Shown here piece by piece: positions 1,877 to 19,108 of a stretch of 25,009 bases of DNA. Where the stretch lies: positions 1 through 25,009 of the IMG/VR virus record IMGVR_UViG_3300029318_000093. One strand, given 5' to 3'. The notes under the pieces are model-generated. The model searched no databases and was not told the origin of the DNA. It was given only the letters and a program-made list of their open reading frames with translations. Source of the DNA: a virus (lineage: Duplodnaviria > Caudoviricetes). The position numbers and the translations under genes were made by a program. Position 1 is the stretch's first letter. The number at the start of each line of letters is the position of its first letter.

Positions 1877-2011
1877 TTAATTATTAATAAGTACATGAGA
1901 ATAAGAAAAAGGATTTTCGGATGTTTTACTCTTTACCATATTTGAAAAAGTAAAACTTATTAAACCAATACCTAAAATATAGGTAGTAAAAACAATTAAA
2001 AATGTTTTCAT
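1877..2011 (-). CDS. Small single-TM membrane peptide (44 aa, not in ORF track)
   Basis: Read manually: MKTFLIVFTTYILGIGLISFTFSNMVKSK...; first ORF after the 2060-2089 promoter. Confidence 0.55.
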   Translation of the reverse strand: MKTFLIVFTTYILGIGLISFTFSNMVKSKTSENPFSYSHVLINN

Positions 2012-2059
2012 AACTAATAATAGAGGGAGAAAAAAAAGAAATTAACCTCTATAAGCTTA

Positions 2060-2089
2060 ATTATAGTCTAATTGCTAGTAAAAAGCTAA
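2060..2089 (-). promoter_or_regulatory. Promoter: CTAG-palindrome box + TATAAT
   Basis: Minus-strand TATAAT at 2060-2065; box CTAGTAAAAAGCTAA at 2075-2089, 9 bp away. Confidence 0.6.
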
Positions 2090-2281
2090 GTTTTTTAAGT
2101 TATTCTAACCTTTTTATTAATTGGCACACTAACCTGAGACAAGATGAGATTACAAAAAACCTAGTCATAGCCTGGGTTTACAAGGAATTTAGTAATATAT
2201 GAGAATAGATGAGAATCCTATAATTTTAATATTCTTAATGGCTACTACATCAAGATAGCTAGTAAAAAAGTAGGAATATCA

Positions 2282-2309
2282 TAAGACAGTTTTAAGACAG
2301 TTTTAAGAC
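2282..2309. repeat. 11-bp tandem repeat TAAGACAGTTT x2.5
   Basis: TAAGAC at 2282, 2293, 2304. Confidence 0.85.
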
Positions 2310-2412
2310 TGAGCTGGGATTGATGCACTATAAAATTTTAAATTATTAGATAAGGATTTTAAACCATTAATAAAATTGACTCTTAAAACGTATCTAAGAA
2401 AAAAAATTAAAT

Positions 2413-2443
2413 AAAAAAAATCTTGATAAAAAATATCAAGATT
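2413..2443 (-). terminator. Probable terminator hairpin
   Basis: AATCTTGATA-AAAAA-TATCAAGATT (2419-2443) with a minus-strand U-tract, downstream of ORF 2471-2689; stem is AT-rich. Confidence 0.5.
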
Positions 2444-2470
2444 AAAAAAATATTTTTTTTGTATATTAGA

Positions 2471-2689
2471 TTAAAATTTTAATTTCGATTTTAAAATTTT
2501 ATTTTCATTTTTCAAAATTTTATTTTCATTTTGAATAATTCTAATATAAGAAATTAAATCAAGATAATAATTTTTAAAATCATCTAATTTAATATTATTA
2601 GCATCCTTAATTAAGTTAGCTAATTTTTGAGAAAAAATAAAAATTGACATTTTAGCAATTTTTAGATTTGGTTTTTTTTGGTTTTTCAT
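2471..2689 (-). CDS. Hypothetical protein, C-terminal coiled coil
   Basis: 72 aa; NENKILK duplicated; minus-strand TATAAT at 2721-2726 upstream. Confidence 0.5.
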   Translation of the reverse strand: MKNQKKPNLKIAKMSIFIFSQKLANLIKDANNIKLDDFKNYYLDLISYIRIIQNENKILKNENKILKSKLKF

Positions 2690-2856
2690 TTTGTTTAAAA
2701 TGTTTTATGTTTACTCTTTAATTATAAATTTTATAAATTCATAAAAAAATTTTTACGTGCGAAAAACTAAAATTTTTTTATTAATCGTCCTGAAGAGTAA
2801 AAACAAAAAAATTAAAAAATTTATTTCTTTATACTTTAAAAAAAATTAAAAAAATA

Positions 2857-3000
2857 AAATATAAACAAATAAAATAAAAATAAAATATTTAATTATATTT
2901 TTCCTGAATAAATTACAAAAAATAAAATGTAAACAATTAAAAAAAATTACACTTATTAAATATAAACAAATAAATAAAAATAAAATATTTGATTATATTT
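2857..3000. repeat. Near-perfect ~43-bp direct repeat in an almost pure AT tract
   Basis: AAATATAAACAAATAAA(A)TAAAAATAAAATATTTRATTATATTT at 2857-2900 and 2958-3000. Confidence 0.75.
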
Positions 3001-3099
3001 AAGCTTCAAATATTATTTTTAAATATAAACAATTCTAAGAGAATACAATTTATAAAATATAATTAAATAATCGCTAAAAACGTAGTCATAGCAATGGAT

Positions 3100-3136
3100 T
3101 TGACACTTTTTTATAAAAAATAGTACTTTTGTACTA
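3100..3136 (+). promoter_or_regulatory. Sigma70-type promoter overlapped by a cyanobacterial LexA box
   Basis: TTGACA 3100-3105, 18 bp, TACTTT 3124-3129; TAGTACTTTTGTACTA 3121-3136 fits AGTACWNWTGTACT. Confidence 0.55.
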
Positions 3137-3165: not shown

Positions 3166-3301
3166 GAGATTTCCTGAGAAAAAAAGCTTGCGAGTCCCTC
3201 TGTGAAAAAGTCAGCGAGTCCCTCAGAAAAAAAGCTTGCGAGTCTCTCAGAAAAAATGCTTGCGAGTCCCTCGCCAAAAAAAAAGAACCCTTGCGAGTCC
3301 C
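3166..3301 (+). repeat. 24-bp-period tandem array with GCGAGTC core
   Basis: GCGAGTC at 3190, 3214, 3238, 3262, 3293; unit ~GCGAGTCCCTCAGAAAAAAAGCTT; degenerate copy at 3166. Confidence 0.95.
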
Positions 3302-3330
3302 TTTTTTAAAAAATTTATAAAACCTGATTA

Positions 3331-3588
3331 TCAAGTTTCAAGGCAAACCTCAGTTAATGGATCGTTTTCAAACCATACTGTTCGGTCTTCTTTATTTACA
3401 AATTTATTGCCATTATAACTTTCAACTAAATCATGCACCCATTTAGGATAATATTCTTTGCCATCTGAACTATCTAAATTATAATATGATGCATCAGAAG
3501 ATAGTGCATAAATACTAGATCGTAAATCTTCTAAATCTTCTAAATTAATTTCAAAAGAAATATCTACTTTAATTTTTTTAGTTGACAT
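3331..3588 (-). CDS. Hypothetical protein
   Basis: 85 aa acidic ORF overlapping the upstream stop; GAGG RBS. Confidence 0.7.
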   Translation of the reverse strand: MSTKKIKVDISFEINLEDLEDLRSSIYALSSDASYYNLDSSDGKEYYPKWVHDLVESYNGNKFVNKEDRTVWFENDPLTEVCLET

Positions 3589-3775
3589 TGTTTAACCTCG
3601 CTATTTTAGATTTAATTGATGAATACATTTTTCTTTTTTCTGTATCCATGTTTCTTACATCAAGTGCAAACCAAGCATCAAATAAAATTTCTGCTAAAAA
3701 TTTGGTTTCTTGTTCTGTAAGAATTTCTCCTAGTGCATCAAACATTTTTAATACCTCCTTAATCCATATGATCAT
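3578..3775 (-). CDS. Hypothetical protein
   Basis: 65 aa; true start may be the internal MFDAL after AAGGAGG. Confidence 0.65.
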   Translation of the reverse strand: MIIWIKEVLKMFDALGEILTEQETKFLAEILFDAWFALDVRNMDTEKRKMYSSIKSKIARLNNVN

Positions 3776-4145
3776 TAGATTTTACTTCGCCATCCCAAGG
3801 TCTAATGATACCCATATATTTTTCATATGCATATTGGCATCCATCAGAATTGGATGTGTAAATTTTTTTTCTAAATTCTGAACGACCAAATATTGGACAT
3901 CCTTGGTTAGTCATAGGAACATTTTTACCCTCAATAACTGCAAAACTTGGTAGTGAATGATATTTTTGAAATCCCCATGTGCGACCATAATCATCATCAA
4001 TTTTGTTGTCATCAATTCTCATTAGCCATACATTAGATTTACTAATTCTTGTGACTATAAAAAAGTCATATCTTCTAGGGCATCCCCAACCCATTTCACA
4101 AATTTGATTAACTTCAAAAGTTTTGGTTTGTTGAATAGTTTCCAT
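3759..4145 (-). CDS. Hypothetical phage protein
   Basis: 128 aa; first gene of the leftward arm of the divergent promoter. Confidence 0.75.
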   Translation of the reverse strand: METIQQTKTFEVNQICEMGWGCPRRYDFFIVTRISKSNVWLMRIDDNKIDDDYGRTWGFQKYHSLPSFAVIEGKNVPMTNQGCPIFGRSEFRKKIYTSNSDGCQYAYEKYMGIIRPWDGEVKSNDHMD

Positions 4146-4204
4146 AATTTTTTAAAAAAGATTTTACATAGATTCAGGTTTTTTAAAAACCTGAGCCTAG
4201 TAAT

Positions 4205-4249
4205 ATTATAAACGAATGTCTAGCAAAATGCTAGGAAAACCCTTATAAT
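4205..4249. promoter_or_regulatory. Divergent promoter pair sharing a central palindrome
   Basis: CTAGCAAAATGCTAG 4220-4234 with TATAAT on minus (4205-4210) and plus (4244-4249), each 9 bp away. Confidence 0.75.
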
Positions 4250-4273
4250 AAGGGAGTAGTTACACATTTAATT

Positions 4274-4561
4274 ATGTCAAAAACAAAAACTGTCATTCTA
4301 GAAAATGATCCACATTACAAAGAAAAAGCAAAGTGGGCGAAACAATTTAATCATTTAGTTGGTTTAAAAATTGTTGGAGTTCGCTATTTAACTAAAGAAG
4401 AAACTGAAGCAAGTGCTTGGTATTCTTCTCCAATTGCTATTGAATTAAGTGATGGATCTGCATTAATACCTCAACAAGATGATGAAGGTAATGATGGCGG
4501 AGCATTATGGATTGCTAATTCAAAAGGTAAGCAAAGTTTAATTCCTGTAATCAGAGTTTAA
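4274..4561 (+). CDS. Conserved phage hypothetical protein
   Basis: 95 aa; LVGLKIVGVRYLT and DDEGNDGGAL motifs recalled from phage proteins. Confidence 0.75.
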   Translation: MSKTKTVILENDPHYKEKAKWAKQFNHLVGLKIVGVRYLTKEETEASAWYSSPIAIELSDGSALIPQQDDEGNDGGALWIANSKGKQSLIPVIRV

Positions 4562-4563
4562 TT

Positions 4564-4725
4564 ATGAAACCATTAACAGAATCCCAAATGGAAAAAATTT
4601 GGAAAGAAAATTCCGTAGATACTTTAAATCCAATTCATAAAAAACAATTTATGAATTATTTATTTGGAGAAGAATTTATGGAATCAGAAGACAAAGGTTC
4701 TTTAAAAACTTACGAGGTTAATTAA
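4564..4725 (+). CDS. Hypothetical protein (53 aa, not in ORF track)
   Basis: Read manually: MKPLTESQMEKIWK...TYEVN*; fills the gap between neighbours. Confidence 0.65.
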   Translation: MKPLTESQMEKIWKENSVDTLNPIHKKQFMNYLFGEEFMESEDKGSLKTYEVN

Positions 4726-4911
4726 ATGTCAAATGAAATGCTTTGGTTAATTGATGTTTACGAAAAATATTGTAAGCAAAATCAATTACCACATATGTGT
4801 GCTTCTGATCTTTTATATGGAGCAGATACAAGAAACACATTAAACAGAAACCAACAAGTTTGGTTACAAAGATTTATCTCAATTTGGGATATTGTAAACC
4901 AAAATTCTTAA
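4726..4911 (+). CDS. Hypothetical protein
   Basis: 61 aa; GAGG RBS; abuts previous stop. Confidence 0.7.
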   Translation: MSNEMLWLIDVYEKYCKQNQLPHMCASDLLYGADTRNTLNRNQQVWLQRFISIWDIVNQNS

Positions 4912-4922
4912 GGAGAAAAAAA

Positions 4923-5429
4923 ATGCCTAATTGGACAAAAAACGAAGTTACATTTACTTCGCCATTTACAAACAACATCAAAACAATAAAGGAGATCTTT
5001 GAAAAAGGATCTCCATTTAATCAACTTATTCAAGAACCAAAATGGGATGAAATTCCATTAAAAGGTAATGAACGTGTTTGGTATAACAAATCAAAGCGTT
5101 ATGGCAAAAAAGGAGAATTACCTGTATACGAAAAAATTAATTGCAGTAATGGAGACATTATGGAATTAAAAAAATTTAAGTCTACAAATGAACAGGATTG
5201 TAGATGGCATACTTGGAGATGCGATGAATGGGGAACTAAATGGGATGTTCCCAAAGATGATATAGAAATTACTGAAATAAGTAATGGAGAAATCATGGTT
5301 GAATTTTCTACTGCATGGTCTGCACCATATCCAATCTTTAAAAAATTAAAAAAAATATTTAAAGATGTAAATATTGAATGGTATGCCGAGGATGAAGATT
5401 GGGATGGAGAAGGAGGTTTTTTACAATGA
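4923..5429 (+). CDS. YubB/DUF1281-like ferredoxin-fold phage protein
   Basis: Start MPNW.N after AAGGAG; WR..EWGTKWD and F.TAWS.P motifs. Confidence 0.75.
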   Translation: MPNWTKNEVTFTSPFTNNIKTIKEIFEKGSPFNQLIQEPKWDEIPLKGNERVWYNKSKRYGKKGELPVYEKINCSNGDIMELKKFKSTNEQDCRWHTWRCDEWGTKWDVPKDDIEITEISNGEIMVEFSTAWSAPYPIFKKLKKIFKDVNIEWYAEDEDWDGEGGFLQ

Positions 5430-5743
5430 AAAAAATCACATTTCAGGAATGGAAAAAAAATTTTGAAGACATCCCTTATATCAAAGAAAATTACAAAAAA
5501 ATCCATGAAGATTATGGGATTCCAAAAGAATGCATAAATGGTGGAGACAATTACGAATTGTCTCCGACCACAACAATATGTGTGCGAGTCTTTAAGTATG
5601 GTGGATTTTATGAAATTTGTTTAAATAGCCAATATTATTTGTTACTTGGTAACGAAGATTGGTTAGAAGAAAAAACAGATGTAATAGAAAAAGAATTGTA
5701 CGAATGGTGCAATGGCGAAATTTTTAATACGGAGGAAAACTAA
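5426..5743 (+). CDS. Hypothetical protein
   Basis: Start MKKITF with AGGAGG RBS and ATGA overlap. Confidence 0.7.
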   Translation: MKKITFQEWKKNFEDIPYIKENYKKIHEDYGIPKECINGGDNYELSPTTTICVRVFKYGGFYEICLNSQYYLLLGNEDWLEEKTDVIEKELYEWCNGEIFNTEEN

Positions 5744-5919
5744 TGCTTATCAAATCAACAAACAAAAAAGGCACATTTAATTGTGATGAGGATGGAAAAA
5801 AATTAATTGATTTAATTGATTCCTTATGGTGGGGGAGAGATCGGTGGGATAGCTCCACAGAAAAAGTTATGAATGAAATTGCAGATTTATTAGAGATGGG
5901 AGAAGAAGAAAATGAGTAA
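5743..5919 (+). CDS. Hypothetical protein (58 aa, not in ORF track)
   Basis: Read manually: MLIKSTNKK...GEEENE*; TAATG overlap and GGAGG RBS. Confidence 0.65.
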   Translation: MLIKSTNKKGTFNCDEDGKKLIDLIDSLWWGRDRWDSSTEKVMNEIADLLEMGEEENE

Positions 5920-6229
5920 ATATGGTAATTATAGAAAAGCTAAATTTTCTGTTAATCAAGATAAAATTTTTAAAGGGTATTCTGCGGATACATATTGGAA
6001 TGGTCACGCAGAACCTCATTTTGATTTAAAAACTATTCAAGAAATTATTGATTATTATTTAGATCATAAATGCAAAGAGAAAGCAGAACATTGGAAAGAT
6101 GTTTTTGACCATATGGAAATTTTAGATTCAAACAACAAAATTATTCCCTCAAAAATGACACCATGTTTTTTAAACGATTATGATACTGTTTATGAATGTG
6201 GTTGGGGATTTTGTTGGGAAGAAGAATAA
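5912..6229 (+). CDS. Hypothetical phage protein
   Basis: 105 aa; WNGHAEPHF and C-terminal GWGFCWEE. Confidence 0.7.
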   Translation: MSKYGNYRKAKFSVNQDKIFKGYSADTYWNGHAEPHFDLKTIQEIIDYYLDHKCKEKAEHWKDVFDHMEILDSNNKIIPSKMTPCFLNDYDTVYECGWGFCWEEE

Positions 6230-6248
6230 AATTTTTATAGACAAAAAA

Positions 6249-6467
6249 TTAGGACTCTTGCGAGTCCTTTTTTGTTAGTTTGGCAACTGCTTCTTCTAAT
6301 AATAAGGTTGCGAGTCCTGTAGGTTTCATATCCTTAAATTTAGAAAATTCAATATTTGTTTCACTTCCACAAGTGGGACAAATATTTGTTGATGATTTTT
6401 TTGTTAATGTTTCTAATTGTTCAAAGCACTCGTCAGAAATACGAATGTTAAACTGTCTTTTTTGCAT
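6249..6467 (-). CDS. Putative ribbon-helix-helix DNA-binding protein with CPTCG insertion
   Basis: KRQFNIRISDECFEQLETL (Arc/CopG-like strand + helix), later helix TGLATLLLEEAV; GGAGG RBS. Confidence 0.6.
   Translation of the reverse strand: MQKRQFNIRISDECFEQLETLTKKSSTNICPTCGSETNIEFSKFKDMKPTGLATLLLEEAVAKLTKKDSQES
6251..6273 (+). terminator. Intrinsic terminator between convergent operons, built on a GCGAGTC copy
   Basis: AGGACTC-TTGC-GAGTCCT followed by a T-run. Confidence 0.75.
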
Positions 6468-6488
6468 TACTGCGAGTCCTCCAAGTCT

Positions 6489-6776
6489 TTAATAAGGGTT
6501 GTTGTTGTTGAAGAAGAAATCATCTGATTTTGCTCCTTCCTGAAATCCTAATTTTTTTAATTTATTTAGGATGCTGTTAATTGTTCTTGAGCTAATAAAT
6601 TTTAGCTTTTCATAGTGATCTGCTTCCAGCTCACTATGTTTTATATGTTCCATCAGGTCTTTAAGCTGGGAAAATTCAACCCAGGATAAACCCAGGTTAA
6701 AAATTTCTTGCGAGTCCTGGAGGTGTTGCGAGTCTTTTACATTCATTTTAGTATCCTTTAATTCCTCCATCGCCAT
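6489..6776 (-). CDS. Hypothetical protein
   Basis: 95 aa ORF in operon; start may be internal (MNVKDSQ). Confidence 0.6.
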   Translation of the reverse strand: MAMEELKDTKMNVKDSQHLQDSQEIFNLGLSWVEFSQLKDLMEHIKHSELEADHYEKLKFISSRTINSILNKLKKLGFQEGAKSDDFFFNNNNPY

Positions 6777-6939
6777 AGACCTCTTTCATTAAATCGTCAT
6801 ACAATTCTTTGATAGCTTTAACATCAAAAAATTTATCTGTGACACTATCAAGTATTTTGGATTGAGTTTCACTATCATAATTTTTACTTAAGTCTCTGAT
6901 TTGTTTGAGATAATAAGTTCTGTGATAATTGTTTGTCAT
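6748..6939 (-). CDS. Hypothetical protein
   Basis: 63 aa; AAGGAGG RBS; abuts previous stop. Confidence 0.7.
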   Translation of the reverse strand: MTNNYHRTYYLKQIRDLSKNYDSETQSKILDSVTDKFFDVKAIKELYDDLMKEVYGDGGIKGY

Positions 6940-7164
6940 TTATTTACCTCCTTGTAATTGGATGCTCCAATCTTTTAATGTGTTCCAATCTAATCCATAA
7001 TTTGCAGTTGGTTGTGAATCAATTAAATCCAAACGAACAATAATTGAATGATTTGCTAAATCTACAGAAAATCCTGTGCATCTAAATTCTGCACCATTTG
7101 GATTTGTAAACAATGAACCAACAATCCAATTAAGATTGTGTTCTTGACTTCCTTCTAATTTCAT
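6940..7164 (-). CDS. Hypothetical protein
   Basis: 74 aa; first gene after the 7189-7218 promoter. Confidence 0.7.
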   Translation of the reverse strand: MKLEGSQEHNLNWIVGSLFTNPNGAEFRCTGFSVDLANHSIIVRLDLIDSQPTANYGLDWNTLKDWSIQLQGGK

Positions 7165-7188
7165 AATAATTAGTAAATGTACCCCCTT

Positions 7189-7218
7189 AGTATAATCTAT
7201 TTCCTAGCAAATTACTAC
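7189..7218 (-). promoter_or_regulatory. Promoter: CTAG-palindrome box + TATACT
   Basis: Minus-strand TATACT 7189-7194; box CTAGCAAATTACTAC 7204-7218, 9 bp away. Confidence 0.65.
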
Positions 7219-7221
7219 TTT

Positions 7222-7998
7222 TTAATCAGGATCTTTCCATTCTTTAACAGCTAATGCCCATCTTGGTGCAACACTACCACTACCTAATTTTGCTTGTAAT
7301 TTATGGTTGTTTACTTTAACTACTAATCCATCTGTTGGATATCTAGAAAAAACTAAACTATCTTGCCAATCTTCATGTAAAACTTTTACTTTCTGTATAA
7401 CATTACTTTTAATATGTATATGACCGCAGACATGAAACTTCCAACATAATAGTTCCTGTAATGTATCAATCTCATAGCCATAATCTTTTCCCATAATTTC
7501 AAAAGCACAGAATGCGAGTCCTTCTCCATCGGGTGCTTTTTTTCTCATGTGACCTGCTGCAAGTCTTTGACTTTTTGTATGACCTGTCAATCCATATAAT
7601 TCTCCTCTTACTTCTAAGCAATCTAAATGATTAATCTTTTGTGGTAAATTTTTTACCTTTCTCATTGCATAAGTAATATCTTTACCTTTTCTATTCCATG
7701 CTTTAACTAATTCTCCAAATCTATATCTTAGTGCTACAGCACAACCATCAATCTTTGGTTCTACTACTACATCTGTATTATGTGGCAAGTCTCTATACCA
7801 ATTTTCAAAAGATTGATTACCTAAACTTAAAAGATAATTACCTCCACCAGGAGAAAGTAATGTTGGGTGGTCAGGTGCTATATCTATTAATTCTGCTCTT
7901 AACTTATCAAACTCATAATCAGATACTAAAGGATTACCAGCTCTATAAGCTTCATCTAATAATTGTATTTTTTTTGCTAGTTCTTCTACGTTAATCAC
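7222..7998 (-). CDS. NAD-dependent DNA ligase, Ia + adenylation domain only
   Basis: Y..G.P.VSD.EFD (domain Ia), EPKIDG, EVRGE, DGLVVK, PRWALAVK; stops 6 residues later, no OB/Zn/HhH/BRCT. Confidence 0.9.
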   Translation of the reverse strand: MINVEELAKKIQLLDEAYRAGNPLVSDYEFDKLRAELIDIAPDHPTLLSPGGGNYLLSLGNQSFENWYRDLPHNTDVVVEPKIDGCAVALRYRFGELVKAWNRKGKDITYAMRKVKNLPQKINHLDCLEVRGELYGLTGHTKSQRLAAGHMRKKAPDGEGLAFCAFEIMGKDYGYEIDTLQELLCWKFHVCGHIHIKSNVIQKVKVLHEDWQDSLVFSRYPTDGLVVKVNNHKLQAKLGSGSVAPRWALAVKEWKDPD

Positions 7999-8036
7999 TA
8001 GTGCTAATAATTTGCTACTAATATCCTAGCATTAAT

Positions 8037-8819
8037 TTATAATGATTTGCCAAATTTGTTAATACTTTCAATTAATATTTTTGGAAACTCTCTATTTATT
8101 ATCGTCATTATTTGTTTCCCATATTCATCTTTTGGTTTTATACTTGGCAACTTACCATATATAAATAATGGTTTAACCATTCCTTTTTTACCTTCATCAG
8201 CCTTAACTCTATATATACCTGCTCTTAATTTTTTATTTTTACTTTCTCCTTGATTTTTAACAGCAAAAACTCTTGCAGTTTGTATTCTACTTCCCTTTGA
8301 TTTATTATTTGTTTTTTTATTTCTTGAAGAACTTAATCCCCAAATAGTATTACGATAAACTGTTGGTTTTACTCTTCCAGATTCTGTAAGCTGAATCATT
8401 TCTCCATATTTTGTATTTGGATATGGATATTGATTTGGATTGATGTAATTTCTTTTTCTTAAATATTGCAAAAATCTGGTTGCATAAACTTCTGTACTAC
8501 CTCCACCAATTACTGGAAATAAATATTTAGCTGGTGCGTTACCTTTAGATTCATCGTCATTAACTTTAAAAGTAACTTCATTTTTTTCAGCAGCATAATT
8601 GATACTTTTTAATGTGTAATCTACAGGATCACGAAATTGATTTTTACCAGATTTAAATTCAAAAGGTAAACCTTTTTTATCATTTTTAGCTACAAGAAAA
8701 CCAATTCGTTTTGTAGCTTGATAAGTACTTCGTCTTAAAGATTTAGCATCATATTTATTAATTTCTTTTATCAAAGAAGCTACATTAATTGTTACTCTGG
8801 TTGCCAAAATAAAATCCAA
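8037..8819 (-). CDS. Basic phage protein, possible virion morphogenesis/tail-completion type
   Basis: 260 aa, Lys-rich; F.DPV.YT, KGNAPAKYL.P.I.GG motifs; function tentative. Confidence 0.5.
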   Translation of the reverse strand: MDFILATRVTINVASLIKEINKYDAKSLRRSTYQATKRIGFLVAKNDKKGLPFEFKSGKNQFRDPVDYTLKSINYAAEKNEVTFKVNDDESKGNAPAKYLFPVIGGGSTEVYATRFLQYLRKRNYINPNQYPYPNTKYGEMIQLTESGRVKPTVYRNTIWGLSSSRNKKTNNKSKGSRIQTARVFAVKNQGESKNKKLRAGIYRVKADEGKKGMVKPLFIYGKLPSIKPKDEYGKQIMTIINREFPKILIESINKFGKSL

Positions 8820-8865
8820 AAAATGTTATTAATTAAAGTATAGCAAGTCTTGGTTAAGTGAGACT

Positions 8866-9097
8866 GTGTGTCCAACGTCCAACCTCGTCCAACCTATTTC
8901 TATATATATTCCTTTTTCTTAGGTACATATAAGATAGCCCCTTTTTAGCCCTATCCTGTATATATTTATATAAAAAAAGTCCTTTATGGGTTTTTAGTTG
9001 GACGTTAGACAAAGCTAGTGGTGGACAAGGTGTCCAACCTGTGTCCAACCTTCAGGTGTCCAACCTGTTAACGATTTATACAGAAATTGTGTCCAAG
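8866..9097. other. Probable replication origin with GTCCAAC iterons around an AT-rich core
   Basis: GTCCAAC at 8870, 8877, 8887, 9032, 9043, 9058; inverted GTTGGAC 8997, variants 9004, 9020, 9091; directly downstream of primase-VirE. Confidence 0.75.
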
Positions 9098-11220
9098 TCT
9101 CGAATGTAGACCCATTTGCGACTCGATCTATCTCCTCTGCGTTTTTTAACGAGTCCCAAGTCCCTTAGTATTGACGCAATTTGCATTTGATCTCCTCTGG
9201 TTTGTCGTTCAATTGGCTTTTCAATTGCTTCTGTAAGTACGACCTCTGTTGTTAACTCACGACCTCTATTCTTTGGTTCATTTATATAACTTTCTACGAC
9301 AGATTTCCAAGGACTATCTATTAAATATTTCACGTTTTCGTTGTTAACAATTGCCTCAGATTCTGTATCTAAAATCCAAGGTTCTTTATTTAAATATGCA
9401 CTAACTGCGGAAGCCCAAATACTATCTTTTTCTTTTAATAATCCATCACAATCTATTTGCTTTTCATTATCTTTTGATGTGGGTATGATCCAAAATCTAC
9501 GATTGCCCGAATCATCCATTAGCAATCCATCTGTCTTGTTACTAGTTCCTACTATTATTCCTCTTCTTTTAAAAACTTCTGTTGCTTTTCCATATGGAAC
9601 TCTAAATATATCTGTTGCTTGAGATAGGAATGCTTTGACTTCTCCAGCTTGTTTTCTTGTTGTCAAGAAATCCAATTCGCTATATTCCATTATCCAGCTG
9701 CGATGAAGAATCATTAACGAGTCTTTATTAGAAATATCTTTTAATGCATCGGAAAAAAAATGCCCTCCTAAAACAGACCAAAAGGTAGATTTTCTTGCAC
9801 CTTGTTTTCCTACTATCACACAACAATTATCAAACTTACAACCTGGCTCAAAGACACGAGCTACTGCTGCGATGAGTGTACATTTAAGCATTTTATCGTA
9901 AATAGTTGGAGCAATCGGTTTATCTTCAGGTCTTAAATAGGTAGTTGCTAATTGATCTATGTAAGTAAGTTCTTCTGTATTGGAAACGTGCTGTAGATAT
10001 TCTTTTACAGGATCGTATTCATTTTCTCTTGCAATTTGTACTACACAATCAAAAGCAACATCTTTTGGAATTTTTAATCCTTTATTTGCAAGATGTAAAT
10101 AATATCTTTCTATAGAGTTTGCCCCATCGCAAACAACTTCTCCTTCTTCTATCTGTTGTGTAAATACATTATATCTAAATGGCTCTTGTCCTCGATTCTG
10201 CTTTTCTCTTAATAGTGCCATTAATTGATTAGCTTCTATTTTTTGTAATGGATCTGTTTTTACAGATACAGGCTGATCGGGATTTTCTATATCTTTAATC
10301 TCTACAACTTTTGGAGGTTTATATCCAGCTTCTCGTGCGAGATACCAAAAAGTCCCTGCCTCGATTTGTGACCCTCCAGACCTTGCAATCTGATCTATCC
10401 CACCCCATTCGGGGGAATGTTGTTGCATCAAAGATATTGCATCGCTTGAAGATCTGTTTGCGTCATCGCAAGCTTTAACAAGTCCCCACAGTAAATTACG
10501 ATAGTAATCATAAGTACCACTTCCAGGGATTCTTGGAGGAATGAAATTTAGTGCTTCTTTAATATCTTCAAAAGAGCCTTTTCTATATTCTTTAAATTGT
10601 TTACTTTTTTTTATTTTTTCTGTTTGTACTTTATTAGGTAAACAATCTTCTATATCTTTAACTGTATATTTGTTATCACAAGAACTAATAATCCTTGTCA
10701 TCTCTCTTTGCGTCCCATCATCTCCCATATGATATGTGCCAGGTAGACGCATCACTCGTGATGGATTTTTTAAGGCTCTATCTGCATCTGCATAATCTAG
10801 TAATCTTTCTTGAATAGGCTTCCAAGTCTTTGGATCAATTGTCTTTTTTAAAACCCAATAGTTATGTATTGATTTACCTCCAGTGTCTATTTGTAATGTT
10901 GGTTCTGGAAGACCCAAACTTCTCCATAAATCCACTTGTTCAGACTTAGGTCTATCATCCCATTCGCAGAAGTATGCCCTACAACCTGTTATTTCACTAT
11001 CAGTATCACCACCATCATTTACAACAACATAAATACCACGACCTTCAGATTGACATTGAGTAATCCAATTTATATCTGCATTAGATTTTTTACCACGATC
11101 TGTATTTTTAAGTGGATGCCCTTTTGGGTAAAAGGAACGTAATCTAACAGTATTTTTATCTTTGCCAAGAATTTGAAGAAAAGTCCTCCATTGCAACTTA
11201 TCGAGTTTTAGATCAGACAT
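9076..11220 (-). CDS. Primase-helicase: RepB-type AEP primase + PriCT-2-like + VirE ATPase
   Basis: FCEWDD, TGGKSIHNYW, NPSRVMRLPG; GCKFD, Walker A GKQGARKST, FRVPYGK, DDSGNRRFW. Confidence 0.9.
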   Translation of the reverse strand: MSDLKLDKLQWRTFLQILGKDKNTVRLRSFYPKGHPLKNTDRGKKSNADINWITQCQSEGRGIYVVVNDGGDTDSEITGCRAYFCEWDDRPKSEQVDLWRSLGLPEPTLQIDTGGKSIHNYWVLKKTIDPKTWKPIQERLLDYADADRALKNPSRVMRLPGTYHMGDDGTQREMTRIISSCDNKYTVKDIEDCLPNKVQTEKIKKSKQFKEYRKGSFEDIKEALNFIPPRIPGSGTYDYYRNLLWGLVKACDDANRSSSDAISLMQQHSPEWGGIDQIARSGGSQIEAGTFWYLAREAGYKPPKVVEIKDIENPDQPVSVKTDPLQKIEANQLMALLREKQNRGQEPFRYNVFTQQIEEGEVVCDGANSIERYYLHLANKGLKIPKDVAFDCVVQIARENEYDPVKEYLQHVSNTEELTYIDQLATTYLRPEDKPIAPTIYDKMLKCTLIAAVARVFEPGCKFDNCCVIVGKQGARKSTFWSVLGGHFFSDALKDISNKDSLMILHRSWIMEYSELDFLTTRKQAGEVKAFLSQATDIFRVPYGKATEVFKRRGIIVGTSNKTDGLLMDDSGNRRFWIIPTSKDNEKQIDCDGLLKEKDSIWASAVSAYLNKEPWILDTESEAIVNNENVKYLIDSPWKSVVESYINEPKNRGRELTTEVVLTEAIEKPIERQTRGDQMQIASILRDLGLVKKRRGDRSSRKWVYIRDLDTISV

Positions 11221-11236
11221 TAATTTGATTGTGATA

Positions 11237-11593
11237 TTAACTTAGGGACAAAATATTAAAAACATCTTTAATGCTTCTGGCTACTCCTGTAATGCCCCCA
11301 GATTTATTGATGAAGTTAAGCCAATTGTTTTGTTGAGTTGTAAGTTTGCCTTTTTCTGTTTTTATTTCTATTGAGACAAACTGTGCGATTTCTTGTCCGA
11401 TCATATCTTCGGTTATTTTTATTTTCTTAAAACCGATAAGATCAGAAGAACCTTTAGCTAACCCGAACTGAACGTATCTTCCTGTTCTGGGGTCGGGAAG
11501 TTGCCCCACTTGATTACGAAAAAGGCGAAGAGTTGGTATCTTGCCGATTGCAAGTCGGATTTCTTGTTGAAGCTTAGTTTCATTGTTGCTCAC
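11237..11593 (-). CDS. VRR-NUC domain nuclease
   Basis: E..LQ..I, LFRN.VG, FGL.KGSSDLIG, IEIKT..GK...QQ..WL. Confidence 0.85.
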   Translation of the reverse strand: MSNNETKLQQEIRLAIGKIPTLRLFRNQVGQLPDPRTGRYVQFGLAKGSSDLIGFKKIKITEDMIGQEIAQFVSIEIKTEKGKLTTQQNNWLNFINKSGGITGVARSIKDVFNILSLS

Positions 11594-12596
11594 GCTCCAA
11601 TTGTATAACCCTTTGCAAGGGTATAGCTGCGACTTGCGGAACTATAGTATTTCCCAGCTGCTTTAATCTTTGGATTCGTTGACTTGCGTCCAATTTAGTG
11701 GATAGCCCATCATCTCCTCTACGAATCGTGGGTTCAGATATGTATTGTCTCCAGTTTGGGTTAATACGTCTGATATTCTGCGTTTTCCATGTCGGTCTAT
11801 AAACCCTTGACCCGACCTTCCTTTGTAGTCTGTTGCTGTCGGGGTTGGAAGAAGACTGTTGAAAGTTTTTACTGTCTGTGGATTCACCGCTTCCCTGAGA
11901 TTCGATAAAGATGTCCTCCCTTTTCTCGGACCTTCCATCTGTCTCTTTAATGCTTCGGGACTCCTTTGATCTAAATGATCCATTGTTGTTGGAGTCGGCA
12001 ACATTTCCCGATCTATTATTTCTGTCGCTAGTCCCTTGCTGTGTCTTTTGTCTTTGTTTGGGCTGTTGTCGTAATACATCGAGTCGTTGCATACTGTCGG
12101 AGTTGGAAGGAAATCCGAGCAACCACCAGCGATCTCTTTGGTGGCAAGCTCCAACAAAGCTGCTTGGAATACAACACCATTCTGCATCGTACCCTGCCTC
12201 GTAAATGTCTCGGAGAACGATGTCCATTCCGTTAGCAAGGATCGCTGATACGTTTTCCAAGATGAAGTATTTTGGTCGTACCATGCGTATGGTTCTGATG
12301 AGTTGAAACCAGAGACCAGACCTTGTAGTCTCCGTGATGCCTTCCCTTCGTCCAGCTTGGCTAATGTCGGTGCAAGGAAAGCCCCCAGTGATAACGTCTG
12401 CTGAATGTGGTTCGGCTCTGTAGGTTGTGATGTCATCGTGAATAGGAATATTAGGAAAGTTTTTGTTTAATACTTGTTGACAATACGGATCAATTTCTAT
12501 GAACTGTACTGTTTGAAATCCACCTACAAGTTTTTCCGCAGCGTAACTAAAACCGCCAATACCTGCAAATGTATCTAGTAATCTAAGTTTTTTCAT
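11580..12596 (-). CDS. C5-cytosine DNA methyltransferase, large subunit (motifs I-VIII and X)
   Basis: FAGIGG (I), GFPC (IV), ENV (VI), HQRDR (VIII), RLKQLGNTIVPQ (X); no motif IX in this frame. Confidence 0.9.
   Translation of the reverse strand: MKKLRLLDTFAGIGGFSYAAEKLVGGFQTVQFIEIDPYCQQVLNKNFPNIPIHDDITTYRAEPHSADVITGGFPCTDISQAGRREGITETTRSGLWFQLIRTIRMVRPKYFILENVSAILANGMDIVLRDIYEAGYDAEWCCIPSSFVGACHQRDRWWLLGFPSNSDSMQRLDVLRQQPKQRQKTQQGTSDRNNRSGNVADSNNNGSFRSKESRSIKETDGRSEKREDIFIESQGSGESTDSKNFQQSSSNPDSNRLQRKVGSRVYRPTWKTQNIRRINPNWRQYISEPTIRRGDDGLSTKLDASQRIQRLKQLGNTIVPQVAAIPLQRVIQLEREQQ
11663..12436 (-). CDS. Nested alternative-frame methyltransferase small subunit (variable region + motif IX)
   Basis: 257 aa open entirely inside the MTase gene; three LPTPT modules; LNPRFVEEMMGYPLNWT resembles motif IX. 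Confidence 0.8.
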   Translation of the reverse strand: MTSQPTEPNHIQQTLSLGAFLAPTLAKLDEGKASRRLQGLVSGFNSSEPYAWYDQNTSSWKTYQRSLLTEWTSFSETFTRQGTMQNGVVFQAALLELATKEIAGGCSDFLPTPTVCNDSMYYDNSPNKDKRHSKGLATEIIDREMLPTPTTMDHLDQRSPEALKRQMEGPRKGRTSLSNLREAVNPQTVKTFNSLLPTPTATDYKGRSGQGFIDRHGKRRISDVLTQTGDNTYLNPRFVEEMMGYPLNWTQVNESKD

Positions 12597-14320
12597 TTAT
12601 TAATAAAGATTAGAGAATTAGGATTTATAACAACATTTTTATTACGAACTGTAGATACATAATTTATTATGAAAGTTCTATCCCAAGAATACTGAAACAT
12701 ATCAAAAAACCATTCTTTAAATAACTTTCTATTAGCAAAACTGCTACTACTATTTAATTGCATAGTTTTAAATATTACTCCAGCATCTGAATTTGGATTT
12801 TTAGCTAACTTTCTATAGTTTTCATTGTGATAATCTTTTAACATTTTAAATCCAACAGAATTAAGAGCAAACAATCTTGCAACTTTTTCTTTTTGATCCA
12901 TTGTTAATTTAGCTTTATATTTCATGTCTGGTTTAGGAAGATAGTATGTATTTTTTTTTCTAGATTCATGCACCCTATAAGCCCATCCTTTTTTATAACC
13001 TAATATTTTTGCAACCATTTCTAATTCTTCTAAAGTTCTTGCAGTTGCGATAAGTTGTTTTTGTTGTTGTTTTTCTGTTTCTGCTTGTTCTTTTCTCTTA
13101 AGTTCCTCTAATTCTCCTTCTTCTTGCTTAATAAACCTTTCTCTGTTTTCTGCTTGATAACCACAAACAGGACAAACTGGTGTTGGTTTATATGTAGCAA
13201 AACATTTTTTGCAAGTTTCTACATGAGGTGCAAGTTCTCCTTTTTTCTTTTTCTTTTTTTGCGAATGTAATGACCAATCTCTTTTATCATCTACAAAACC
13301 ATGTGTTCTAGTGCTATTTACATGATCTAAAATAATAGCTGTCTTATTAGTTTTCGGCCTAAGAACTCTACCTACTTGTTGTAAATATAACCCTTCAGAT
13401 TTTGTTGGTCTAAGGAGAATTGCTGCTGATACATCTGGAACATCTGTACCTTCTGATATGACATCAACAGATGTAAGAATTTGTATTTTTCCATTTCCAA
13501 GTCCTTTAATTGCCTTATCACGATCATCGACCTTCATCTCGCCATGAACTATAGCAGCTTTATAACCTGCATCTTTAAATTTATTACAAACATCAGTTGC
13601 GTGTTTTATAGAAATACAAAAAGCAATTGCAGGTAAACCATCTGCGTGTTTTTTATATTGTTGAACTGCATCGCCAATAATATCTACACTATCTATTTGT
13701 TTTTCTAATTCTTTTTTCTGATAATCTCCACCTAAAGTTTTTACTTTATCTAAATTTACTTTTAAAGGAGGTGCAAATACTTTATAAGGAGCAAGATATT
13801 TTTCATCAATTAATTTTGCCACTCCAGGGCCTTTAACTAAATCATCGAAATAATCAGCTAATCCTCTGCCATCAAGTCTTATTGGTGTAGCAGTACATCC
13901 AATTTTATATGCATCTTTAAAATGATCTATTATCTTTGTCCAACTTCCAGCTGCTGCGTGATGTGCTTCATCAATAATAATGTAGTTAGGATTAAAAGTA
14001 TTTTTTACAAGTCTCCTTACTAAGGTTTGTACAGATGCTATCTGTATATTGTTTCTTGACTCTTTATATTTTGCAGCAATAACACCATGCTTTACTCCAA
14101 TAGCTTTTAATTTTTTAGAAGCTTGATCTATTAATTCTCTTCGATGTACAAGAATTAAAACATTTTTTTTGTTTTGTGATATTGCTTTAGATATTGCAGC
14201 AAAAACAACTGTCTTACCAGCTCCAGTTGGCATTACTAACAAAGGAGATTTTTTACCCTTTGTATTAAAAGAATATCTCAAACTATCTATTGCTTTGATT
14301 TGATAACTTCTTAACTGCAT
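12593..14320 (-). CDS. SF2 DEAH helicase with Zn finger and C-terminal extension
   Basis: LRSYQ, PTGAGKT, DEAHH, TATP, QQVGRVLR, CKKC..CPVCG, GYKKGWA. Confidence 0.92.
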   Translation of the reverse strand: MQLRSYQIKAIDSLRYSFNTKGKKSPLLVMPTGAGKTVVFAAISKAISQNKKNVLILVHRRELIDQASKKLKAIGVKHGVIAAKYKESRNNIQIASVQTLVRRLVKNTFNPNYIIIDEAHHAAAGSWTKIIDHFKDAYKIGCTATPIRLDGRGLADYFDDLVKGPGVAKLIDEKYLAPYKVFAPPLKVNLDKVKTLGGDYQKKELEKQIDSVDIIGDAVQQYKKHADGLPAIAFCISIKHATDVCNKFKDAGYKAAIVHGEMKVDDRDKAIKGLGNGKIQILTSVDVISEGTDVPDVSAAILLRPTKSEGLYLQQVGRVLRPKTNKTAIILDHVNSTRTHGFVDDKRDWSLHSQKKKKKKGELAPHVETCKKCFATYKPTPVCPVCGYQAENRERFIKQEEGELEELKRKEQAETEKQQQKQLIATARTLEELEMVAKILGYKKGWAYRVHESRKKNTYYLPKPDMKYKAKLTMDQKEKVARLFALNSVGFKMLKDYHNENYRKLAKNPNSDAGVIFKTMQLNSSSSFANRKLFKEWFFDMFQYSWDRTFIINYVSTVRNKNVVINPNSLIFINK

Positions 14321-14395
14321 AAGGTTGCACGAGATGTTTTAAGGGTATATGATACGACAAGAAACGACAAGTCTTTTATTGATAATCCAACAAAA

Positions 14396-15223
14396 ATGTA
14401 TAAACCCCTTGTAATGAGCAATGCAGAATATCACTCAAAGAAAGACTACGAGTCTTCTACTTCTATTCGTGATATAAAGTTAAATCCAAAAAAATATTTA
14501 TTTCGCAAAACACATGAAACTGTTCCTACTAAAGCTATGGAAGAGGGAACTGCTGTACATACATATTTTTTAGAAAACGATTTATTTAAAAAAAATTATG
14601 TATTCAAACCAAAAGCATTTAATGGCAGAACAAAGGAAGGCAAAGAATGGATGCAAGAACATGGTCATCTAAATATATTGTCTGCTGAATGGGAAGAAAA
14701 TCTTATACAGATGAATCACAACTTTTTAAACAGCCCTGCAAAATTTATCTACAATAAGGAAGGATTAGCAGAATTAAGCTATTTTTGGGAAGATTTATAC
14801 AAAATAAAGGGTAAATGTAGACCAGATTGGCTATCTAAGGATGGAAATACAGTTGTTGATCTAAAAACTACACAAGATGCGAGTCCTAAAGGTTTTCAAA
14901 AATCTATAGCAAATTTTGGTTATCACATTCAATGTGCTTGGTACTTGAGAGGTTTAAGAAAACTAGATGTACCTGCAAAAGAATTTATTTTTATAGCAAT
15001 AGAAAAAACAGCACCATATTGTATTGGAGTCTATCGAGCAGATGAAGACATGATTAATGCAGGTATGAGTGAAGTAGAAAAATCATTAGAACTTTTAAGA
15101 ATATGCCAAGAAACAAAACTATATCCAGACTACACACCGACCATACAAGATATTAGTCTTCCTCCTTGGATGACTAATAAAAAGGTCACACCACAAAACT
15201 ATCAGGAGATTGAACTTTACTAA
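14396..15223 (+). CDS. RecE/exonuclease VIII-like PD-(D/E)xK nuclease (DUF3799 type)
   Basis: NAEYH, GTAVH..LE, KCRPDWL, VDLKTT, YHIQ.AWY, F.FIAIEK..PY. Confidence 0.88.
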   Translation: MYKPLVMSNAEYHSKKDYESSTSIRDIKLNPKKYLFRKTHETVPTKAMEEGTAVHTYFLENDLFKKNYVFKPKAFNGRTKEGKEWMQEHGHLNILSAEWEENLIQMNHNFLNSPAKFIYNKEGLAELSYFWEDLYKIKGKCRPDWLSKDGNTVVDLKTTQDASPKGFQKSIANFGYHIQCAWYLRGLRKLDVPAKEFIFIAIEKTAPYCIGVYRADEDMINAGMSEVEKSLELLRICQETKLYPDYTPTIQDISLPPWMTNKKVTPQNYQEIELY

Positions 15224-15363
15224 TGAAAATCGAATTCGATTACAAACAAGGAGAGTGGATACAACTAAAAGCGTATCTTTTTCCATACCTTCATAAATCA
15301 GAACTTGTACAAGATTTTGTAAAAAAGGTAAATACAAAAACTAGATTGAGGCCAATGAAATGA
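15223..15363 (+). CDS. Hypothetical protein (46 aa, not in ORF track)
   Basis: Read manually: MKIEFDYKQGEW...RPMK*; TAATG and ATGA overlaps at both ends. Confidence 0.6.
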   Translation: MKIEFDYKQGEWIQLKAYLFPYLHKSELVQDFVKKVNTKTRLRPMK

Positions 15364-15572
15364 GTATAGAAGAACGTCTAAATAATCTTGAAAAAGGTTA
15401 TAAAGAACTTTGTCAATCACATGACAAAAACAAACAAGCACATTTATTAACTGCAAGTTCAATAAATGAAGTTAATAACAGTTTTAAAGAGATAAGAAAT
15501 TTAATTAAAACACAACAGATAATTAATAATGGAATTTTGAGTAAATTACAAGAATTGGAGGATAGAAAATGA
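15360..15572 (+). CDS. Coiled-coil hypothetical protein
   Basis: 70 aa; ATGA-coupled on both sides. Confidence 0.7.
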   Translation: MSIEERLNNLEKGYKELCQSHDKNKQAHLLTASSINEVNNSFKEIRNLIKTQQIINNGILSKLQELEDRK

Positions 15573-16195
15573 CAACAGAAATTACAACAACAGAAGGCGA
15601 GTCTTCTATATATCAAACTACAGATAGTTTTGAATTTGCACAAAGACAAGCAAAAAGTTTATGTCAATCACAATTAGTGCCAACACAATATCAAGGTCAA
15701 CAAGGTTTACCTAATTGTTTGGTTGCACTTGAAATGAGTAAAAGAATGAATCTTAGTCCATTAACTGTTATGCAAAATTTAAATGTTATACACGGCAAGC
15801 CAACATGGTCGGCACAATTTATTACATCTAATATTATTGGATGCGGTAGATTTACTAACTTTGATTATTTAGTAAAAGGCCAAGGCGAAACATTAGAAGT
15901 ACAATGTGTTGCCACCAGGCTTGAAGATAAAAAACAAGTTAAAGGCACAGCAGTATCTATGAAGATGGCAAGACAAGAGGGCTGGACTAAAAACCCTAAA
16001 TATTCCAGTATGCCTGAATTAATGTTACGCAACCGAGCAGCAACATTTTTTGGTAGGCAATATATTCCCGATCTGTTATTAGGTGTGCAAACTAGTGAAG
16101 AAGTGATAGATATAGAACCAGAGCCAATAAATGTATCCGAGTCTTCGGTGCAAGTCGAATCAAAACAGGAGGATGAAAATGACCTTGGATTCTAA
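15569..16195 (+). CDS. RecT-like single-strand annealing recombinase
   Basis: VP..YQG, VMQNLNVIHGKPTW, PELMLRNRA..FF.R...PD.LLG; acidic tail; downstream of RecE-like gene. Confidence 0.8.
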   Translation: MTTEITTTEGESSIYQTTDSFEFAQRQAKSLCQSQLVPTQYQGQQGLPNCLVALEMSKRMNLSPLTVMQNLNVIHGKPTWSAQFITSNIIGCGRFTNFDYLVKGQGETLEVQCVATRLEDKKQVKGTAVSMKMARQEGWTKNPKYSSMPELMLRNRAATFFGRQYIPDLLLGVQTSEEVIDIEPEPINVSESSVQVESKQEDENDLGF

Positions 16196-16382
16196 AGATG
16201 AATTTATTACAAGTATGGAACTCGCTGAACGATGGCGAGTCCATGCAGATACTGTTGAACGATGGCGAAGGCAGGGCAAACCCCCTTCTTTCTATTCGAT
16301 TAATGGAAAGATCCTCTATAAGGTGGCTGAGATAGAGGAGCTAGAACTAGCCAAACGTCAAAATTCTGAATTAAAACAATGA
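16179..16382 (+). CDS. HTH DNA-binding protein (excisionase/AlpA-like)
   Basis: ELAERWRV...TVERWR..GKPP.F..I.GKILY; AGGAGG RBS 6 nt before ATG 16179. Confidence 0.85.
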   Translation: MTLDSKDEFITSMELAERWRVHADTVERWRRQGKPPSFYSINGKILYKVAEIEELELAKRQNSELKQ

Positions 16383-16753
16383 CACTAGAATTACAATTAG
16401 CTGTTTTTAGACAAACAGATCAAGACAACAGGTCTTTTTATAAAGAGAAGTTCGATGCTTCTAAAAAATATCCTGATTATAAGGGAACTGTAAAAGTACC
16501 TGTAGGACAACTAGAAGAATTTATTTCTTACCTTAAAAATGCAAAACCCGATAATGATGGTTATGTGGGAGACTATATTCCATTAAGAGCATCGGGTTAC
16601 ACAAATACACCAAAAAATAATCCAAATGGTAAAAAATTCCTTGCATTAAAGATTGAGACAGACTATAAAAAACAAAAGGAGATATATGAGTCTGGTACAA
16701 CATCAACAAGTCCTGTTGATGCACCTTTAGGCGAAGACGAAATCGACTTTTAA
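16379..16753 (+). CDS. Putative single-stranded DNA-binding protein
   Basis: PDYKGTV motif, acidic aromatic tail EDEIDF, follows the recombination genes. Confidence 0.55.
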   Translation: MTLELQLAVFRQTDQDNRSFYKEKFDASKKYPDYKGTVKVPVGQLEEFISYLKNAKPDNDGYVGDYIPLRASGYTNTPKNNPNGKKFLALKIETDYKKQKEIYESGTTSTSPVDAPLGEDEIDF

Positions 16754-16757
16754 CTCA

Positions 16758-16978
16758 TGGGGCATGATCGCTAGTTTGTAAAAATCATAGTCATGGCTAG
16801 TTAATTTGCTGCTCCTTTGTAATCTTGAGGCTAATGACTCTGTATGGCCGTTGCACCAATTTTACAAAGATGACACGAGTTCCCATCGAGGATATATGAG
16901 AGAGTCAAAGGCAGTTTTCTGAAAGGTTTTTCTGCCTCATATGCTCATATATAAGCAAACGTATCTGTTAGTCCCCAA
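16758..16978 (+). ncRNA. Candidate multibranch structured RNA
   Basis: Closing TGGGG/CCCCA; two perfect 9-bp stems; AGGCAG/CTGCCT stem enclosing a GAAA loop; fills the intergenic gap. Confidence 0.55.
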
Positions 16979-16988
16979 CCTTTTTATT

Positions 16989-17264
16989 ATGGCAGACTCA
17001 AGAAAATCAGTACTTAAGCTAAAAAGACTTAGAGAAAAAAGACTTTTATGGCTTGAAAAAAAATTAGATAAAGATATTCGTGGTTATGATCACATCGTTC
17101 AATATCGAGATGATCATACTGCATATTTAAAGTCTGATTGGGTTGATGAAAATATAAGCATTATTATTATTAAACATAATTATGAGGTAAAAAAAGCAAA
17201 GACTATGTTAATTAAAGACTTCAAAAAATGGGAAAGAGAGGAGGTTGATAATGAAATCAAATAA
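16989..17264 (+). CDS. Hypothetical basic protein
   Basis: Start moved to MADSRK, just after the structured element. Confidence 0.7.
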   Translation: MADSRKSVLKLKRLREKRLLWLEKKLDKDIRGYDHIVQYRDDHTAYLKSDWVDENISIIIIKHNYEVKKAKTMLIKDFKKWEREEVDNEIK

Positions 17265-17475
17265 CTTTCCTGATAAAGAAATACTTGATATGCCACCCGA
17301 TATGGAAGGTGTAACAAGACCAAAAAAAGATAAAAAAACTAAGAAGTTTATATTTATTGTAAATGGAGTTGGTAATGCACCTATGAAGCTAACTACTTAT
17401 GCAGAAAATAAAACTAAAGCAATAAAATATGTGCAAGCAAGATGGAAAGATTGTAGCTGGAGGGTAGTTAAATGA
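17251..17475 (+). CDS. Hypothetical protein
   Basis: Start MKSNNF after GGAGG RBS. Confidence 0.7.
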   Translation: MKSNNFPDKEILDMPPDMEGVTRPKKDKKTKKFIFIVNGVGNAPMKLTTYAENKTKAIKYVQARWKDCSWRVVK

Positions 17476-17735
17476 AAAAAATTATTTTTCCAAAAGAACC
17501 ATATAGAGGACAAATATATTGGGACATGAAAACTAAAATTATTTTTGAATATTGGATACCAGACGATGACGCTCCTGTAGAAGTTAAAGCAAAATGGATG
17601 GCATTAGATTTTCAACAAGAATGTGTTGCAGGTTTGTTTTCACAAAAAGGCAAAAATAAATATTTTGCATATAACAAACTAATTGATTTGTTTGGTTGGA
17701 CAGACCAACAGATAAAAGATTTAATTAACGCATGA
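17472..17735 (+). CDS. Hypothetical protein
   Basis: 87 aa; ATGA-coupled. Confidence 0.7.
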   Translation: MKKIIFPKEPYRGQIYWDMKTKIIFEYWIPDDDAPVEVKAKWMALDFQQECVAGLFSQKGKNKYFAYNKLIDLFGWTDQQIKDLINA

Positions 17736-17839
17736 CAACAGATCAAAAGATAGCAGCAGCTACTGCTCGCATAAAAGAACTCGAAACACTTATTAAATTA
17801 TGGAAAGATGAACGAAGAACAAAAAGAATTTCTATTTAG
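17732..17839 (+). CDS. Hypothetical protein (35 aa, not in ORF track)
   Basis: Read manually: MTTDQKIAAATARIKELETLIKLWK...; ATGA-coupled. Confidence 0.55.
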   Translation: MTTDQKIAAATARIKELETLIKLWKDERRTKRISI

Positions 17840-17975
17840 ACACCCTTGGTTTTTAAAACTATTTCGTAAAGAAGATCGGCTTAAAATCCTTGCATCTTTT
17901 ACAACAGAAGAAGCTGAAATGATGATAGTTAGATATGATTTAGAACTTAAATACGGAAAATTTAAAAAAAAATAA
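17808..17975 (+). CDS. Hypothetical protein (55 aa, not in ORF track)
   Basis: Read manually: MNEEQKEFLFRHPWF...KFKKK*; fills operon gap. Confidence 0.55.
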   Translation: MNEEQKEFLFRHPWFLKLFRKEDRLKILASFTTEEAEMMIVRYDLELKYGKFKKK

Positions 17976-17978
17976 ATC

Positions 17979-18164: not shown

Positions 18165-18248
18165 TCATGTTTTTAGAGTTATAAATGGTAGAAGATATTG
18201 GATTAGTACACCACCTAATGGATACGAGGATAAAATTTGGCATAAATA

Positions 18249-18810: not shown

Positions 18811-18854
18811 TAGAGTGTCCTCCACCCTAACGATAACCAAATATCTATAAAAGT

Positions 18855-19052: not shown

Positions 19053-19108
19053 CTATAGATTTGTATGGTTTTTTATTTTAATATAGAAGGAGTTATTTAA
19101 CTATAAAA

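Follow-up and report, generated by a model that had tools for sequence, protein, structure and literature searches.

The DNA analysed here (the window, 25,009 nt in all) is the genomic right end of a cos phage with a lambda-type terminase and cyanophage genes, and it carries a short oriented word, CRAGTCY, which is very probably a real and conserved signal, selected at the level of the DNA and tied to one end of the genome. The explanation that best fits this pattern, with a probability of about 0.35, is that CRAGTCY is an oriented site for a phage protein, most likely the tail-completion-like product of the gene at 8037-8819, on the DNA that would be ejected first; this explanation is placed ahead of those in which the word is a host Chi sequence or a site of programmed nicks. 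No account of the motif was found in the open-access literature. The features on which the argument draws are as follows.

1..39, + strand: fixed genome end, equivalent to the right end of the lambda map, with four variable bases, GAA and, at 30-39, an element which we take to be cosQ-like (shared contig starts, circular assemblies)
2001..3100, no strand: AT-rich stretch with almost no genes, preceding the first motif copy (GC 17.6% in 2001-3000)
3190..3300, + strand: tandem array of five GCGAGTCY at spacings of 24, 24, 24 and 31
5585..23613, + strand: 31 dispersed CRAGTCY, densest at 5-10 kb
7222..7998, - strand: adenylation domain of an NAD-dependent ligase, standing alone (PF01653, phrog_3869, alignment of 34)
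8037..8819, - strand: candidate reader, phrog_1924 / DUF6441-like and tail-completion (gpZ)-like (phrog_1924, E 7e-13; its tree follows the word switch)
9076..11220, - strand: primase-helicase with a VapE domain, of the S-LBS1/S-2L type and closest to Synechococcus phages S-LBS1 and S-2L; six motif copies inside
14396..16195, + strand: recombination module, exonuclease VIII and a RecT-like annealing protein (phrog_412, phrog_561)

The initial annotation had singled out GCGAGTC as a motif confined to one strand, and the fifteen positions that it listed, the five additional CGAGTC, the trailing C or T and the lack of GACTCGC were all exact on recounting: there are 15 copies on the + strand of the window and none on the - strand, the next base being C or T every time. 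Its expectation of about 0.2 copies per strand is likewise close to the 0.18 given by an order-2 model. The + polarity of GCGAGTC therefore stands, but the true motif is the wider CRAGTCY, which occurs 36 times on the + strand and once, at 23436, on the - strand; CAAGTC is polarised equally (19:2), and CGAGTC has two - strand copies. The motif also does not end at 16241, as had been claimed, but spans 3191-23607, with no CRAGTCY in positions 1-3190. Because five of the 15 GCGAGTC belong to a single tandem array, the 15 copies are not independent. When nine relatives are pooled, the preferred form is (T)GCRAGTCY, and weaker variants are polarised too.

Composition, codon bias or the avoidance of restriction sites could be invoked to explain such a word, and several short sites are avoided by the genomes of the clade, but this explanation retains next to no probability, since composition and codon bias are refuted by synonymous-codon shuffles. 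In 1000 such shuffles, in which only copies lying fully within coding sequence were counted, the 9 observed GCGAGTC compare with a mean of 0.26 and a maximum of 3, and the 26 observed CRAGTCY with a mean of 3.3 and a maximum of 10, enrichments of about 35-fold and 8-fold respectively that hold in both gene directions; sites are, in addition, gained and lost between lineages. Copies of CRAGTCY lie in + genes, in - genes and in all six strand and frame classes; 10 of them lie between genes or at their edges. The word thus passes the codon-preserving shuffle that the initial annotation had named as a check, and the earlier proposal that selection acts on the DNA rather than on the protein is supported. 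Two observations may be recorded here in their own right. CACTG/CAGTG, GGACC and CCGG are strongly avoided in the window and in two relatives (G001, G002), and the avoided short sites are probably host restriction sites. The small ORF at 6249-6488, which by eye resembles a ribbon-helix-helix protein, has a ribosome-binding site flanked by two motif copies, with one more copy in a terminator-like hairpin at the end of the ORF.

The end from which the motif is distributed can be fixed precisely. At least 10 independent contigs share their starting point with the window, and the circular assemblies G002, G003 and G091 read across the junction, on the other side of which lies the start of the small terminase. 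These junctions read TTTTGCG-NNNN-GAA, and the contigs begin four variable bases ahead of the GAA, which suggests a lambda-type terminase producing cohesive ends of only about four bases. The complete relative G001 has genes for a portal, a tail and both terminase subunits, large and small, of lambda type; that for the small subunit sits at the far end, so that position 1 of the window corresponds to the right end of the standard lambda map. The right end of lambda is the end ejected first; by analogy, packaging of the present phage is predicted to finish, and ejection to begin, at the motif-rich end. The genes of the window comprise a VapE-type primase-helicase, a VRR-NUC protein, a C5 methylase, an SF2 helicase, exonuclease VIII, a RecT-like protein and genes of cyanophage type. 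Inside the C5 methylase gene there is a second long ORF in another frame (11580-12596 and 11663-12436), which also matches a methyltransferase family, phrog_1008.

These uncultured phages are common in metagenomes from the ocean, with 299 relatives confirmed in a single scan, and the motif is conserved within the clade. Among 67 low-GC primase loci of at least 8 kb (shorter ones were dropped, and many are near-duplicates), 57 have an excess of CRAGTCY on the same strand (6-47 copies versus 0-8), nine have CAAGAAC in its place (8-14 versus 0-2, and in one case 13 versus 7), and one, L064, has neither word in excess. Loci of 54-66% GC that share only the N-terminus of the primase show no excess of the motif, and in eight cultured cyanophages CRAGTCY is not enriched, with 1-9 copies per strand. 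The counts on the two strands, with codon-aware expectations in brackets, are 36/1 (4.2/1.6) in the window, 41/2 (9.0/6.2) in G001 and 70/1 (11.0/4.5) in G091; they are 41/6, 35/13, 22/8 and 16/2 in G090, G003, G092 and G095, and the whole-record expectations for those with 41/2, 70/1, 41/6, 35/13 and 22/8 are 9-11 on one strand and 4-8 on the other. The half of the genome nearest the cos end holds 34 of the 41 sites in G001 and 61 of the 70 in G091, and Kolmogorov-Smirnov tests of the end bias in five whole records, with clusters collapsed, give p = 0.058, 0.035, 0.010, 0.028 and 0.008. G002 has 13 copies of GCMAGAAC, all within 41% of its length from the cos end, and none on the other strand. 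Tandem arrays akin to that of the window are found in G001, G003, G005 and G091. The same-strand excess at related loci supports the conservation and the oriented signal that had been anticipated, while the decay from a fixed cos end and the second lineage with another word are beyond what the initial annotation could see.

The word is not restricted to a single GC class. A relative of about 52% GC, G096, has CMAGAAC at 14/1 (4.4/3.0) and CRAGTCY at 6/5, so that both words are found in low-GC and in about 52%-GC phages. The fragment G098, which is unrelated, has CRAGTCY at 34/3 in the same layout, with an array 3.1 kb from its end. As separate observations, G098 (L310/L311) has CGAGTCC at 25:0, two tandem arrays, genes for Erf, helicase, SSB and ExoVIII, and its contig ends in a long repeat of ACAT type. 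G097 and L223/L211 were dropped as independent carriers, their copies being mostly in local arrays; L223 and L211 have many intergenic 12-base tandem arrays on AGCGAG in a single orientation. In Roseobacter phage CRP-821 (L547), TTGCTCA occurs at 20:2 versus 3.1 expected and is evenly spread genome-wide.

The array adjoins the stretch of 17.6% GC, and phage primases with sites of 5-8 bases are known (PMC8718748, PMC12205980); the array could then serve as origin iterons next to AT-rich DNA, with the dispersed copies as priming or loading sites for the primase-helicase, as in NrS-1. This is improbable. Priming sites should span the genome, but the far half of G001 has 7 of the 41 sites and there is no domain on the opposite strand. 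Grouping by word is rejected by the primase N-terminal tree, which requires two word changes (p-AU 1e-56), and the primases share no diagnostic column; S-LBS1 and S-2L, moreover, have the same primase type, and the motif is absent from them. Motif sites within the primase gene are common to close relatives and turn over among distant ones, and all of them are absent from the three low-GC CAAGAAC sequences in the alignment.

The host is, we infer, Prochlorococcus or marine Synechococcus, and a primase 45% identical to that of the window is present in a Prochlorococcus genome record. Chi was the first reading of the motif because phages LLS and MD8 have matching geometry: RGACTYG, the word as seen on the lambda top strand, would be the Chi sequence of a picocyanobacterial RecBCD that enters at the unprotected right end, and tandem copies would raise the chance of recognition. 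In LLS, 20 of 23 copies are reported to be active and half lie in the rightmost 22%, and MD8 has 32:0 (PMC12315714); Rec+ Inh- lambdoids are described as having the same geometry (PMC3784561), and the lambda right end as left open by terminase (PMC12315714). Co-oriented clustering at the right cos end, as expected of Chi, is found here, and the same core recurs on the unrelated fragment G098. RecBCD is reported in marine picocyanobacteria (PMC5101192), and in all five Prochlorococcus-family genomes tested, the host family as inferred, recC matches were obtained, below the curated cut-off, with open frames of 1064-1105 aa.

The host chromosomes do not, however, behave as this reading would lead one to expect. 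In a hand tally of whole chromosomes, with the origin taken as position 1, where dnaN lies, and the terminus as the midpoint, the leading strand has 33 of the 69 Chi-sense copies in G046 and 31 of the 74 in G080 (p 0.81 and 0.20). RGACTYG occurs at 86:68 in a 720 kb sample of G046, where 78.5:72.7 is expected, and at 77:56 in 420 kb of G048, where the expectation is 86.8:77.4, so that in these samples neither enrichment (observed/expected about 1.0 and 0.8) nor strand bias (p 0.33 and 0.26) is present. A different word, GCGGCT, has a Chi-like signature in G046 (69:23 versus 23.8:18.7), the motif is absent from the eight cultured cyanophages, and each of the two phage words spans both GC classes. 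The oriented signal that had been proposed is upheld; among its suggested roles, that of host Chi failed the host-genome test. Because the sampled hosts show neither enrichment nor polarity, it is less likely that the word is Chi, and we consider that identity possible but unlikely; the likelihood that it works like Chi is unaffected. GCGGCT itself was rejected as a strong host signal, the count of 86:28 having been inflated by one repeat gene (69:23 when collapsed in G046, and nothing in G048). As a side observation, GCGGCT is leading-strand biased and enriched in G046 after the collapse of clusters, which makes it a candidate Chi of low-GC Prochlorococcus, and it is scarce in five low-GC records of the clade (0-2 versus 1.2-5.6 expected), with 18 versus 9.0 in MED4-117.

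Since the sampled host chromosomes do not favour the word, it is likely to be a private signal for a viral protein. Only two genes are general to the right arm, the ligase adenylation domain and phrog_1924, located by the primase. They occur in the same 12 of 16 records, and every carrier with an intact arm has both; they are missing from G089, G093 (truncated), and the unrelated G097 and G098, the last unmatched for either gene in 17.9 kb (27% complete). In G089, which may be without its right arm, CRAGTCY reaches only 13/7 (7.9/3.5). The phrog_1924 tree needs a single word change and joins G096 to the low-GC CAAGAAC clade with support 92, compared with two word changes in the ligase tree, which neither supports nor clearly rejects that grouping (p-AU 0.058), and of the 17 ORFs of G096 that are common to both groups only phrog_1924 and GP88 have their nearest counterparts in the low-GC CAAGAAC phages. 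This co-variation of word and protein amounts to one incongruence, with L085, where neither word is clear, and L524 having joined the group after a tree had been seen. Because the structural genes lie outside the G096 fragment, the reader linked to the word could be a virion protein. Identity in phrog_1924 is only about 30% among CRAGTCY carriers despite the constant word, and phrog_1924 matches occur without an end-biased word in Roseobacter CRP-821, Pseudomonas KT1 and freshwater loci. Homologues of phrog_1924 are annotated as minor tail protein Z, and 45 members gave no Pfam match. The predicted fold (pLDDT 88) resembles uncharacterised viral proteins and, weakly, tail components, but it matches nothing in the PDB at E<=0.001, and no DNA-binding fold was recognised in it.

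Other candidate readers were set aside. GP88 is absent from the strong carriers G091 and G003, and in its tree the partner of G002 is a carrier of CRAGTCY; the N-terminal helix-turn-helix of the small terminase is nearly identical across word types; the trees of helicase, VRR-NUC, ExoVIII, RecT and SSB do not group by word; and the ORF at 6249-6467 is missing in G090 and G091 and has no family match.

The sites could instead be places where a phage nickase cuts one strand of the virion DNA in a programmed manner, as happens in tf, T5 and phiKMV, the breaks being closed once the DNA is in the cell with the help of the truncated ligase. GAGTC is a known nickase site. By its motifs, the ligase core appears catalytically intact in all carriers with an intact arm: KxDG and the later catalytic motifs are kept in the alignment of 34, and the protein ends past the last core motif. 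The stand-alone adenylation domain is conserved clade-wide, the OB-fold part being absent from the same ORF. Phage tf is reported to have 14 one-strand sites, of which 11 fall in the head-attached half and none before 4.5% of the genome, and the word varies among its relatives (PMC3517423), a layout that fits as well as that of Chi; the ligase core would also suit nicking. The word switch, however, is followed by no nuclease, and in the VRR-NUC tree the CAAGAAC phages do not fall together; arrays with copies 12-24 bp apart, like the graded variants, suit binding better than cutting. The motif lies at 10 of 164 contig ends, against a background of 9.9%, in what is a weak and indirect test of nicking. 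We regard this reading as doubtful, and rank it after host Chi.

The preferred explanation, a phage-encoded reader, takes in the observed polarity, gradient, fixed end, conservation, switch to CAAGAAC and co-travelling genes. Three further elements are presumed: that the order of ejection follows the lambda precedent, that the candidate reader binds its word specifically, and what this binding is for. The phrog_1924 product would be loaded in a single orientation on the DNA that is the last to be packaged and the first to be ejected, with the tandem array about 3 kb in as a high-occupancy entry point; the bound protein would steer or protect the leading end for as long as the short cohesive ends stay open, and the neighbouring adenylation-only ligase would perhaps help closure. 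The most specific version is a tentative one: a private Chi-like code, in which a protein of the tail-completion family has turned into a sequence-specific binder, loaded in one direction over the 20 kb that enter first, the word has switched from CRAGTCY to CAAGAAC with the whole genome, and the protein guards and closes ends of about 4 bases together with the adenylation-only ligase.

Each of the leading readings lays a standing question open to direct test. If the reader is a phage protein, the tail-completion proteins, which are poorly understood, would gain a DNA site together with two natural variants of specificity. Chi would be the first for picocyanobacteria, and one invisible to genome statistics. 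Nicks would lead to the genes responsible for the breaks in virion DNA, which have no known function in T5 and tf.

Among known systems, the priming sites of NrS-1 and of GP55 of lactococcal phage 1706 resemble the present motif in being short asymmetric words in phages with an AEP-type primase-helicase, but the word here is end-biased and does not follow the primase tree. The sites of the tf/LUZ24 group, T5 and phiKMV are reported to share the confinement to one strand, the empty first few percent, the decay from the end thought to enter first and the word variants among relatives (PMC3517423). The putative sites here are 3-5 times more numerous and degenerate, and they include tandem arrays; the present phage, unlike tf, T5 and phiKMV, is of the cos rather than the terminal-repeat type. 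The Chi clusters of LLS and MD8 (PMC12315714; PMC3784561) are alike in the lambda-type terminase, the single strand, the peak at the right end and a word of 7-8 bases within genes, but the present system differs from them in showing no Chi signature in the likely hosts, in having its own ExoVIII/RecT module, in using two words in one clade across GC classes, and in its tandem arrays.
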